64,000 nucleotides of DNA from Escherichia coli (GTDB lineage Bacteria > Pseudomonadota > Gammaproteobacteria > Enterobacterales > Enterobacteriaceae): assembly GCF_024700885.2 (NCBI RefSeq), contig NZ_CP117016.1. The stretch is one strand, 5' to 3'. Below are positions 55,170-57,407 of the stretch, piece by piece. The notes beneath the pieces were generated by a model. That model had not been told where the DNA came from. It saw only the letters and a program-made list of their open reading frames with translations, and searched no databases. The stretch's first letter is position 1. Each line of letters starts with the position of its first letter. The translations under genes and the position numbers were made by a program.

Positions 55170-55198
55170 CTTGAAATATGGTGATGCCGTACCCATAA
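55170..55198 (+). promoter_or_regulatory. Putative sigma32 heat-shock promoter of clpP
   Basis: CTTGAAA -35 (55170-55176), 14-bp spacer, CCCATAAC -10-like. Confidence 0.4.
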
Positions 55199-55277
55199 CA
55201 CAGGGACTAGCTGATAATCCGTCCATAAGGTTACAATCGGTACAGCAGGTTTTTTCAATTTTATCCAGGAGACGGAA

Positions 55278-55901
55278 ATGTCATACAGCGGCGAACGAGA
55301 TAACTTTGCACCCCATATGGCGCTGGTGCCGATGGTCATTGAACAGACCTCACGTGGTGAGCGCTCTTTTGATATCTATTCTCGTCTACTTAAGGAACGC
55401 GTCATTTTTCTGACTGGCCAGGTTGAAGACCATATGGCTAACCTGATTGTGGCGCAGATGCTGTTCCTGGAAGCAGAAAACCCAGAAAAAGATATCTATC
55501 TGTACATTAACTCCCCAGGCGGGGTGATCACTGCCGGGATGTCTATCTATGACACCATGCAGTTTATCAAGCCTGATGTCAGCACCATCTGTATGGGCCA
55601 GGCGGCTTCGATGGGCGCTTTCTTGCTGACTGCAGGGGCAAAAGGTAAACGTTTCTGCCTGCCGAATTCGCGCGTGATGATTCACCAGCCGTTGGGCGGC
55701 TACCAGGGCCAGGCGACCGATATCGAAATTCATGCCCGTGAAATTCTGAAAGTTAAAGGGCGCATGAATGAACTTATGGCGCTTCATACGGGTCAATCAT
55801 TAGAACAGATTGAACGTGATACCGAGCGCGATCGCTTCCTTTCCGCCCCTGAAGCGGTGGAATACGGTCTGGTCGATTCGATTCTGACCCATCGTAATTG
55901 A
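55278..55901 (+). CDS. clpP: ATP-dependent Clp protease proteolytic subunit
   Basis: 207 aa, Ser-His-Asp triad context GQAASMGA. Confidence 0.97.
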
Positions 55902-56026
55902 TGCCAGAGGCGCAACTGTGCCGCTATACTTATCCAGGGCGGCACAACGCTGTAAGCGGCTTGCGCCTGAGAATGGCATTTGCGTCGTCGTGTGCGGCAC
56001 AAAGAACAAAGAAGAGGTTTTGACCC

Positions 56027-57301
56027 ATGACAGATAAACGCAAAGATGGCTCAGGCAAATTGCTGTATTGCTCTTTTTGCGGCAAAAGCCAGCATGAAGT
56101 GCGCAAGCTGATTGCCGGTCCATCCGTGTATATCTGCGACGAATGTGTTGATTTATGTAACGACATCATTCGCGAAGAGATTAAAGAAGTTGCACCGCAT
56201 CGTGAACGCAGTGCGCTACCGACGCCGCATGAAATTCGTAACCACCTGGACGATTACGTTATCGGCCAGGAACAGGCGAAAAAAGTGCTGGCGGTCGCGG
56301 TATACAACCATTACAAACGTCTGCGCAACGGCGATACCAGCAATGGTGTCGAGTTGGGCAAAAGTAACATTCTGCTGATCGGTCCGACCGGTTCCGGTAA
56401 AACGCTGCTGGCCGAAACGCTGGCGCGCCTGCTGGACGTCCCGTTCACCATGGCCGACGCAACCACGCTGACCGAAGCCGGTTATGTGGGCGAAGACGTT
56501 GAAAACATCATTCAGAAGCTGTTGCAGAAGTGCGATTACGACGTACAGAAAGCGCAGCGCGGGATTGTCTACATCGATGAAATCGACAAGATTTCTCGCA
56601 AGTCAGACAACCCGTCCATTACCCGAGACGTTTCCGGTGAAGGCGTACAGCAGGCACTGTTGAAACTGATCGAAGGTACGGTAGCTGCTGTTCCACCGCA
56701 AGGTGGGCGTAAACATCCGCAGCAGGAATTCTTGCAGGTTGATACCTCTAAGATCCTGTTTATCTGTGGCGGTGCGTTTGCCGGTCTGGATAAAGTGATT
56801 TCCCATCGTGTAGAAACCGGCTCCGGCATTGGTTTTGGCGCGACGGTAAAAGCGAAGTCCGACAAAGCAAGCGAAGGCGAGCTGCTGGCGCAGGTTGAAC
56901 CGGAAGATCTGATCAAGTTTGGTCTGATCCCTGAGTTCATTGGTCGTCTGCCGGTTGTAGCAACGTTGAATGAACTGAGCGAAGAAGCTCTGATTCAGAT
57001 CCTCAAAGAGCCGAAAAACGCCCTGACCAAGCAGTATCAGGCGCTGTTTAATCTGGAAGGCGTGGATCTGGAATTCCGTGACGAGGCGCTGGATGCTATC
57101 GCTAAGAAAGCGATGGCTCGTAAAACCGGTGCCCGTGGCCTGCGTTCCATCGTAGAAGCCGCACTGCTCGATACCATGTACGATCTGCCGTCCATGGAAG
57201 ACGTCGAAAAAGTGGTTATCGACGAATCGGTAATTGATGGTCAAAGCAAGCCGTTGCTGATTTATGGCAAGCCGGAAGCGCAACAGGCATCTGGTGAATA
57301 A
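56027..57301 (+). CDS. clpX: ATP-dependent Clp protease ATP-binding subunit ClpX
   Basis: 424 aa; N-terminal zinc finger CSFCGK...CDEC; Walker A GPTGSGKT. Confidence 0.97.
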
Positions 57302-57376
57302 TTAACCATTCCCATACAATTAGTTAACCAAAAAGGGGGGATTTTATCTCCCCTTTAATTTTTCCTCTATTCTCGG

Positions 57377-57407
57377 CGTTGAATGTGGGGGAAACATCCC
57401 CATATAC
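57377..57407 (+). promoter_or_regulatory. Putative sigma32 heat-shock promoter of lon
   Basis: GTTGAAT -35-like, 13-bp spacer, CCCCATAT -10 about 85 bp upstream of lon ATG. Confidence 0.5.

Follow-up and report, generated by a model that had tools for sequence, protein, structure and literature searches.

Sigma-32-type heat-shock promoters upstream of the clpP-clpX operon and lon in Escherichia coli

The window, meaning the whole 64-kb stretch of DNA that was analysed, holds the E. coli tig-clpP-clpX-lon-hupB-ppiD region, and E. coli genomes annotated with tig, clpP, clpX and lon match the locus at 100%. On the plus strand lie clpP at 55278..55901 (NCBIfam TIGR00493, 369.9 bits, and RefSeq annotation), clpX at 56027..57301 (NCBIfam TIGR00382, 719 bits), and lon at 57489..59843. 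Read from its ATG start, lon encodes 784 aa and matches NCBIfam NF008053 over residues 1-784 of 784 (1817.8 bits); a longer reading from a GTG at 57444 appears in the mechanical list of open reading frames. The clpP promoter region is limited upstream by the intrinsic terminator of tig (55063..55094, plus strand), which the terminator scan describes as a 14-pair stem followed by a T-run. Downstream of clpX, a scan of both strands found a terminator hairpin at 57332..57356 with T-runs on both, where per Rfam the small RNA gene sraA has its 3' end as well. The three intergenic regions are those of MG1655 base for base. As such, the clpP and lon promoters are the same as the promoters of K-12, not relatives of them, and data from K-12 are directly applicable.

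The initial annotation had proposed heat-shock promoters of the sigma-32 type upstream of both clpP and lon. For lon it gave GTTGAAT-N13-CCCCATAT, and direct reading of the sequence bore this out, with a spacer of exactly 13 nt. The -35 element GTTGAAT (57378..57384, plus strand) matches five of the seven positions of the heptamer and leaves the TTGAA core intact, and the -10 element CCCCATAT (57398..57405, plus strand), which lies 84 nt upstream of the lon ATG at 57489, matches all seven specified positions of CCCCATnT. The CTTGAAA claimed for clpP is likewise present (55170..55176, plus strand) and agrees with the consensus heptamer at seven of seven positions. The clpP -10 motif is also there, but the string originally given for it, CCCATAAC at 55192-55199 (79 nt upstream of the clpP ATG at 55278), sits one base too far to the right when set against CCCCATnT. 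Read in register, the clpP -10 octamer is aCCCATAa (55191..55198, plus strand), which agrees at five of the seven specified positions and stands 14 nt from the -35 heptamer. The published sigma-32 consensus is CTTGAAA and CCCCAT separated by 13/15 bp (PMC3168786), and a second description of the sigma-32 promoter has CTTGAA at -35 to -30, with CCCCATTT at -15 to -8 in its dnaKp1 scaffold (PMC10216364).

Counting mismatches to the consensus gave four sites with at least 12 of 14 positions where 2.1 +/- 1.6 are expected, which is not significant alone. Such counts discriminate poorly, and they were replaced by a core pattern and by a weight matrix. The pattern TTGAA-N13-16-CCCATA has two matches on both strands of the 64 kb, exactly the clpP and lon sites, with 0.16 expected and two or more matches reached in one of 100 shuffles. 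The matrix was built from 12 Shewanella oneidensis sigma-32 sites with lon and clpP left out; over the whole window, both strands included, it places lon first (20.96 bits) and clpP second (18.79 bits). Among 300 simulated Markov-1 windows, a best score of at least 20.96 has a probability of 0.013 and a second-best score of at least 18.79 a probability of 0.010, and the joint chance of the ranking is about 1%. Within a single 250-nt upstream region, roughly 3e-5 matches are expected at the lon score and 3e-4 at the clpP score; taken alone over a random 64-kb window, the 18.79 bits of clpP are reached by the best chance match in about 12% of cases.

Published transcription start sites, which the initial annotation had named as the data able to speak against its reading, are compatible with these hexamers. 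Cho et al. 2014 (PMC3923258, Tables S4 and S6) report starts at 455829 and 458037 of NC_000913.2, i.e., at window positions 55206 and 57414, which lie 7 and 8 nt past the clpP and lon -10 octamers, respectively. The clpP start, an A on the plus strand, leaves a leader of 72 nt; it has 1303 reads, was called in stationary phase and with glutamine, and carries the sigma binding entry DSNHE. There is no call for it in the sample held at 50 °C for 10 minutes, where the upstream start 455801 dominates, and a start in this dataset needs at least 40% of the strongest signal to be called. Upstream of lon, the plus-strand starts span 57414..57416. The first of them fits the sigma-32 geometry and has 1744 reads, calls in stationary phase, with glutamine and in heat shock, and the binding entry DH; the second, 458039 in Kim 2012 (89 reads, exponential phase), fits a sigma-70 geometry. 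Sigma-32 ChIP-chip binding covers both the clpP and the lon regions at region-level resolution, too coarse to pin it on one hexamer pair, and the motif column of the same study is permissive (PMC3923258). Its reconstructed network lists lon as 'DH' and clpP as 'DSH/DSNH'.

The start at 455801 (.2 coordinates; window 55178) belongs to a sigma-70-type promoter directly upstream of the clpP sigma-32 site (55143..55171, plus strand), made up of TTAGCG (55143-55148), 17 nt, and an extended -10, TGtTATGCT (55163-55171). This -10 runs into the sigma-32 -35 by two bases, and the start, six bases past the hexamer and reported by both Kim 2012 and Cho 2014 (PMC3923258), falls just past the sigma-32 -35. 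We considered 55178 as a sigma-32 start and rejected it: the sequence upstream of it resembles neither sigma-32 element and fits an extended -10 sigma-70 promoter. The lon promoter has a comparable arrangement, in which the GTTGAAT element is common to the sigma-32 and sigma-70 readings and a sigma-70 -10, TATACT (57403..57408, plus strand; 9/12 in the promoter scan), follows 18 nt after TTGAAT and 7 nt before the start at 57416. Each sigma-32 promoter thus overlaps a sigma-70-type promoter, so both are composite, and the sigma-70-type promoters presumably supply basal expression.

The clpP match could instead be a chance resemblance without function, the promoter starting at 55178 in essence driving clpP-clpX and any heat induction coming from elsewhere. 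That start is the strongest for clpP (3166 reads, all four conditions; PMC3923258) and no other is called in exponential phase or heat shock, and the sigma-32 -10 has just five of seven positions. An in vitro genomic SELEX list for RpoH (PMC5493296, Table 3) contains dnaK and lacks both clpP and lon. At the gammaproteobacterial loci compared outside Enterobacterales, the clpP sigma-32 motif is absent or weak, with no strong motif upstream of the gene. Against this, 55206 is a separate start exactly 7 nt past its octamer, as at dnaK P1, the region lies under sigma-32 ChIP-chip signal, the site is second in the window by an independent matrix, and PMC4957304 and PMC5493296 place clpP in the sigma-32 regulon.

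Conservation bears on the same question. The clpP motif is kept at the orthologous position, with varying spacers, in 13 Enterobacterales loci from nine genera (Citrobacter, Enterobacter, Klebsiella, Superficieibacter, Rahnella, Yersinia, Photorhabdus, Arsenophonus and Providencia). Its -35 is CTTGAAA in 10 of these loci and CTTGAAT in the other three, and the -10 found at the same spacing reads ACCCATTA, CCCCATAA, CCCCAATT or CCCCAGAT. Citrobacter, Klebsiella, Enterobacter and Superficieibacter retain the sigma-70-type block; in contrast, Yersinia, Rahnella, Photorhabdus and Arsenophonus keep CTTGAAA-N13/14-[A/C]CCCA without conserving that block. A chance resemblance at clpP is therefore improbable in our judgment, and we continue to read the site as a sigma-32 promoter.

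The lon site has a wider range. A site with at least 11 of 14 positions occurs in the clpX-lon spacer in 87% of 77 gammaproteobacterial loci, against 3% in shuffles and 8% on the reverse strand, and 62 of the 77 have a proximal site of this quality with a 13-14 nt spacer. Aligning 61 distinct gammaproteobacterial sequences gave motif columns of 1-2 bits and spacer columns of about 0 bits; in the TTGAA core of the -35 the first T is invariant and the other positions are 67-87% conserved, and the -10 columns C, C, C, C, A and T are 90-98% conserved. Among 5424 E. coli genomes, 5414 and 5354 carry the 71-nt promoter segments at 99% identity or better, and the surrounding 2.6 kb reaches this identity in only 2217 records.

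Could lon instead have a plain sigma-70 promoter, TTGAAT-N18-TATACT, with the CCCCAT incidental or kept for other causes such as sraA or an insertion target? The 9/12 match of the scan and the exponential-phase start at 57416 would fit this, although the 18-nt spacer is suboptimal for sigma-70, and both of the other candidates are present. The small RNA gene sraA (57322..57417, minus strand; Rfam RF02029, a gathering-threshold match of 106.7 bits) is antisense to the whole lon promoter. It is also found in the Citrobacter, Enterobacter, Klebsiella, Superficieibacter, Yersinia and Rahnella loci, and has no match in those of Pseudomonas, Xanthomonadales, Vibrio, Shewanella, Photorhabdus and Providencia. 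We rejected sraA as the cause of the conservation of the lon promoter, since the range of the motif is far wider than that of the sraA matches. The 90-98% conserved CCCCAT extends to Pseudomonas (CCCCATCT) and Xanthomonadales (CCCCATAA), both without TATACT. Furthermore, the lon start moves to 57414 in the conditions in which dnaK P1 is detected, and the region has sigma-32 ChIP-chip signal. A plain sigma-70 promoter at lon is thus very improbable, even more so than a chance match at clpP, and the sigma-32 promoter remains our reading there as well.

The insertion target is a GGGGG-AAACAT-CCCC inverted repeat (57387..57401, not assigned to a strand) in the spacer and -10 of the lon promoter; in E. 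coli B, an insertion sequence (IS) has entered this GGGG-N6-CCCC repeat. In strain REL606 of E. coli B, the gene immediately upstream of lon encodes an IS4-family transposase, and the sequence becomes homologous to the window again at GGGGAAACATCCCC (57388); the IS parts the lon -35 from its -10. The E. coli B lineage is known for Lon deficiency, and the IS in its lon promoter matches this. BL21(DE3) is lon-deficient due to an IS in the lon promoter, and loss of the IS restores expression (PMC5306230). A single insertion element placed between the -35 and the -10 explains why the widely used E. coli B and BL21 strains are Lon-deficient. An IS in the lon promoter of a BW25113 derivative, suspected from a partial match, was actually a run of N in the assembly.

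An apparent sraA promoter lies just downstream of the lon start. A polymerase at either the lon or the sraA promoter would occlude the other, which would make sraA and lon transcription mutually exclusive. Elsewhere in the window, a third putative sigma-32-type promoter lies at 31272-31300, within the 3' end of ribD, and a published start falls exactly 7 nt past its octamer. A mutually exclusive pair in which sraA is repressed by stress, and partial heat-shock control of ribE-nusB-thiL-pgpA from the ribD-internal site, are both putative and, in our view, doubtful readings; they may also have been catalogued already.

Two further promoters serve clpX. Inside clpP, a sigma-E-like promoter (55770..55803, plus strand) consists of GAACTT (55770-55775), 17 nt, TCAAT (55793-55797) and a start at 55803; this is the published start 456426 (PMC3923258), with 827 reads in stationary phase, with glutamine and in heat, and a binding entry of 'HE', in which the 'E' derives from RegulonDB sigma-24 promoter regions. 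A figure of the conserved sigma-E core regulon in Rhodius 2005 includes ClpX and Lon. In the clpP-clpX spacer, the promoter scan detected a sigma-70-like promoter (55901..55937, plus strand; ATGCCA-N18-TATACT) whose start at 55937 is 456560 in Kim 2012 and Cho 2014 (PMC3923258).

Other literature also assigns these genes to sigma-32: lon and the Clp protease genes are described as sigma-32 dependent (PMC7279449 for lon, PMC4957304 and PMC5493296). According to PMC4957304, sigma-32 activates the promoters of clpP, clpX and lon individually, and the source cited there is a retracted study. A Salmonella reporter study, in which RpoH induced cat fusions of clpP, clpX and lon, carries a retraction and was set aside. 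For the clpP and lon genes, the supplement of a Salmonella ChIP-exo study holds expression values only.

Overall, the motifs, their rarity, their conservation, the fit of published start sites, the ChIP-chip data and the IS disruption in E. coli B support the sigma-32 reading of the initial annotation, and we consider it very likely, with a probability of roughly 93%, that the motifs serve the clpP-clpX operon and lon as sigma-32 (RpoH) heat-shock promoters. From established knowledge we infer that transcription from 55206 and 57414 specifically needs sigma-32 and increases after heat shock. Sigma-32 gains in abundance and activity when unfolded proteins build up or the temperature goes up. 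The RNA polymerase that contains it recognises CTTGAA(A) around -35 together with CCCCATnT around -10, and would start 7-8 nt further on, at 55206 for clpP-clpX and at 57414 for lon, and the ClpXP and Lon proteases would be raised along with the chaperones.

Sigma-32 heat-shock control of clpP-clpX and lon is textbook knowledge. The promoters of both are reportedly catalogued in RegulonDB/EcoCyc, by Nonaka et al. 2006 and by Wade et al. 2006, and their primary mapping is said to be found in Nonaka 2006, Kroh and Simon 1990, Chin 1988 and Gayda 1985. The finding is correct but ordinary, because these sigma-32 promoters have long been known and the bases are exactly those of K-12. Nevertheless, it means that a real alternative-sigma promoter can be recognised from sequence alone, and it provides a worked example of composite sigma-70/sigma-32 promoters, in which basal and stress transcription have starts of their own, 2 and 28 nt apart.

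Compared with the clpP-clpX and lon promoters of K-12 in RegulonDB/EcoCyc, this strain has no promoter difference; its coding-region changes are only synonymous-looking, and it carries two inserted genes elsewhere. Like the promoters shared between sigma-70 and sigma-32 in Cho 2014, where sharing was assigned from ChIP-chip of low resolution and a permissive search for motifs, clpP and lon have promoters of both kinds, and here the two share or overlap elements. In Shewanella oneidensis (PMC3168786, Table 1), lon has ATTGAAA-N13-CCCAATAT at the orthologous position, and clpP has CTTGACT-N12-CGCCATTT, much weaker than the enterobacterial site; both were independently predicted as sigma-32 sites, not mapped as promoters, and the Shewanella loci compared here have the same sequences. 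The classical sigma-32 promoters, including dnaK P1, share with clpP and lon a CTTGAA-type -35, a CCCCATnT-type -10, of which clpP has an imperfect version, a heptamer-to-octamer spacing of 13-14 nt, and sigma-32 ChIP-chip signal. They differ in that the lon -35 starts with G instead of C and ends with T instead of A, whereas in the clpP -10 the initial C and the final T are missing; the overlap with sigma-70-type promoters at both genes is a further difference. At dnaK P1, CCCCATTT is followed by 7 nt and then +1, the same octamer-to-start geometry (7-8 nt) as at clpP and lon, and in the data of Cho 2014 dnaK P1 and lon have the same pattern of calls in stationary phase, with glutamine and in heat.

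Thousands of complete E. coli genomes match the stretch around the clpP and lon promoters, several of the strains at 100% identity, and the genes annotated beneath the matches are tig, clpP, clpX and lon. Family searches confirmed the gene order, placing trigger factor at 53734-55032, ClpP at 55278-55901, ClpX at 56027-57301 and Lon at 57489-59843, with HU-beta and PpiD beyond lon. The start of lon is taken as ATG 57489 because the 784-residue Lon model matched full-length. The ORF list instead puts it upstream at GTG 57444 (799 aa), which was rejected, as the curated model covers 784/784 residues from ATG 57489, the RefSeq start. 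Every base of the tig-clpP, clpP-clpX and clpX-lon spacers is identical to K-12 MG1655, the coding regions showing scattered differences, and K-12 experimental data are therefore valid for these exact bases (around these genes, window + 401399 = NC_000913.3; window + 400623 = NC_000913.2). The two sites are themselves the heat-shock promoters known for clpP-clpX and lon in K-12, not relatives of them. Elsewhere in the window, two segments are missing from MG1655: about 1.65 kb between malZ and acpH (19423-21072), encoding a 507-residue lysine-rich protein (ORF 19532-21055, plus strand) with no Pfam match, and about 2 kb between pgpA and yajO (33904-35886), with a minus-strand ORF (34084-35655) of 523 residues containing pentapeptide repeats (PF00805, E = 2e-15).

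The sigma-32 dependence of clpP, clpX and lon is established at the gene level, and for lon and the Clp protease genes it is also stated at that level in the literature (PMC7279449, PMC4957304, PMC5493296). The sigma-32 consensus is CTTGAAA-13/15 bp-CCCCAT (PMC3168786). Upstream of clpP, on the plus strand, the CTTGAAA named in the initial annotation is present at 55170-55176, but its -10 string, CCCATAAC (55192-55199), lies one base to the right of the proper CCCCATnT register; the octamer in register is aCCCATAa at 55191-55198 (5/7, 14-nt spacer). For lon, also on the plus strand, GTTGAAT (57378-57384) and, 13 nt after it, CCCCATAT (57398-57405) stand as annotated, the latter matching the -10 element at 7/7.

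The significance of these motifs varies with the statistic chosen. When mismatches are counted over the 14 specified positions, the window holds 4 sites of at least 12/14 versus 2.1 +/- 1.6 in simulated sequence, which is not significant, and TTGAA-N13-16-CCCATA occurs exactly twice, at the clpP and lon sites, versus 0.16 expected. With a weight matrix derived from twelve S. oneidensis sigma-32 sites, lon and clpP excluded, the lon site (20.96 bits) is the highest-scoring on either strand of the 64 kb and the clpP site (18.79 bits) the next. Among 300 simulated windows, the best hit reached at least the lon score in 1.3% and the second-best at least the clpP score in 1.0%; per 250-nt upstream region, about 3e-5 hits are expected at the lon score and about 3e-4 at the clpP score. 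The clpP score alone is matched by the best hit of a random window 12% of the time, so the clpP case rests on start sites, occupancy and conservation rather than on the match.

For conservation, a ClpX scan with one genome per species yielded 80 gammaproteobacterial loci in which the genes run tig-clpP-clpX-lon. A coding-strand site of at least 11/14 lies in the clpX-lon spacer of 87% of 77 loci, compared with 3% after shuffling of the spacers and 8% when the reverse strand is read. In an alignment of the promoter-proximal lon sites with a 13-14 nt spacer (62 loci, 61 distinct sequences), anchored at the -10, conservation is 90-98% in the CCCCAT columns, one -35 T is invariant and the spacer columns carry about zero information; these column figures are inflated by the choice of loci on motif score, a bias from which the 87% versus 3% comparison is free. 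The lon site reads CTTGTTT-N14-CCCCATCT in Pseudomonas and CTTGCAA-N14-CCCCATAA in Xanthomonadales, and thus the sigma-32 octamer is retained where TATACT is absent. For clpP, CTTGAAA/T-N12-14-[A/C]CCCA occurs in nine Enterobacterales genera (13 loci); elsewhere it is weak or absent. The Shewanella clpP site is CTTGACT-N12-CGCCATTT, and the clpP and lon sites of that genus are both tabulated as predicted sigma-32 sites in a review (PMC3168786). Within E. coli, identity of 99% or more over the 71-nt promoter segment is seen in 5414/5424 genomes for clpP and 5354/5424 for lon, and over the surrounding 2.6 kb in only 2217 records.

Published start sites (NC_000913.2 numbers in brackets) come from Kim 2012, for exponential phase and with sigma binding not available, and from Cho 2014 (PMC3923258), in which stationary-phase, glutamine and heat-shock libraries and ChIP-chip of six sigma factors were added. 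Kim 2012 gives clpP 55178 (455801; 20 reads), clpX 55937 (456560; 26 reads) and lon 57416 (458039; 89 reads). Cho 2014 gives clpP 55178 (455801; 3166 reads) in all four conditions and clpP 55206 (455829; 1303 reads) in stationary phase and glutamine, both with sigma binding DSNHE (H being sigma-32), and lon 57414 (458037; 1744 reads) in stationary phase, glutamine and heat, with binding DH. Start 55206 lies 7 nt from the clpP octamer and start 57414 lies 8 nt from that of lon, so these mapped starts are compatible with the annotated hexamers and fit the -10 geometry. Start 55206 is uncalled in the Cho 2014 heat-shock library (50 °C, 10 min), where 455801 is strong; a call requires at least 40% of the gene's strongest signal. 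A retracted Salmonella reporter study was given no weight. The initial observation is confirmed, and its interpretation as sigma-32 promoters, which for both genes were already known, is supported.

What is added to that account, besides the one-base shift in the clpP -10 register, is a set of overlapping sigma-70-type promoters. Start 55178 lies only two bases beyond the clpP sigma-32 -35 heptamer and must therefore come from another promoter. A candidate extended -10 sigma-70-type promoter lies there on the plus strand (TTAGCG 55143-55148, N17, TGtTATGCT 55163-55171), with 55178 as the seventh base after its hexamer. This block is kept in Citrobacter, Klebsiella, Enterobacter and Superficieibacter; Yersinia, Rahnella and Photorhabdus retain the sigma-32 motif but do not conserve the block. 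At lon, a sigma-70 scan found TTGAAT-N18-TATACT (57379-57408, plus strand); the exponential-phase start 57416 lies 7 nt after TATACT, and the start is 57414 in the conditions where dnaK P1, a classical sigma-32 promoter, is detected. From geometry and conditions, we infer that at both genes sigma-32 transcription is superimposed on a basal level driven by sigma-70.

E. coli B REL606 carries an IS4-family transposase gene directly 5' of lon, and the element is placed between the lon -35 and -10 because homology to the window restarts at GGGGAAACATCCCCATAT. Its position corresponds to a GGGGG-AAACAT-CCCC repeat (window 57387-57401; 790-950 in the locus labelled L084). BL21(DE3) owes its lon deficiency to an IS element in the promoter region of lon, and in C43(DE3) loss of the element brings lon expression back (PMC5306230), which shows that the promoter is required for lon expression, whichever sigma factor uses it. 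In a pan-genome search with the 71-nt lon promoter, the match spans under 80% of the query in 56 genomes and 55 records have two separate matches, suggesting interruptions like that of REL606; the single case inspected turned out to be a stretch of Ns in its assembly.

Several neighbouring features were also observed. The small RNA family sraA (RF02029) matches above the Rfam gathering threshold (106.7 bits) at 57322-57417 on the minus strand, antisense across the entire lon sigma-32/sigma-70 promoter and ending at the clpX terminator hairpin. A putative sigma-70-like promoter (ATGACA-N18-TCTATT, minus strand, 57450-57421) would put the sraA start beside that of lon, and the two promoters should therefore exclude each other. 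The family was also matched in Citrobacter, Enterobacter, Klebsiella, Superficieibacter, Yersinia and Rahnella loci, with no match in the Photorhabdus, Arsenophonus, Providencia or non-enteric loci tested. Inside clpP, a sigma-E-like GAACTT-N17-TCAAT (55770-55803, plus) serves clpX; its published start, 55803 (456426), has 827 reads and is called in stationary phase, glutamine and heat. Cho 2014 labels this region 'E', taken from RegulonDB sigma-24 promoters (PMC3923258), and ClpX and Lon are drawn in the conserved sigma-E core regulon figure of Rhodius 2005. The clpP-clpX spacer holds a sigma-70-like ATGCCA-N18-TATACT (55901-55937, plus) with the published start 55937 (456560), so clpX has its own promoter. 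At the 3' end of ribD, a sigma-32-type CTTGAGA-N14-CCCCAATT (31272-31308, plus), upstream of ribE (31450), scores 17.36 bits, third-best of the window with the matrix. Its predicted start, 7 nt further on at 31308, coincides with published TSS 433729 (stationary and glutamine); a second start nearby, 433735, is called in heat too, and the region, assigned to the unit ribE-nusB-thiL-pgpA, has sigma-32 ChIP-chip binding ('DSH').

An in vitro RpoH SELEX list contains dnaK, with clpP and lon absent (PMC5493296). In the cryo-EM dnaKp1 scaffold, CTTGAA occupies -35 to -30 and CCCCATTT -15 to -8, with +1 seven bases on (PMC10216364). In Cho 2014, dnaK P1 (12048) likewise reads CCCCATTT, 7 nt, +1, compared with 7 nt for clpP and 8 nt for lon, and its conditions (stationary phase, glutamine, heat) and binding (DH) match those of lon 57414.
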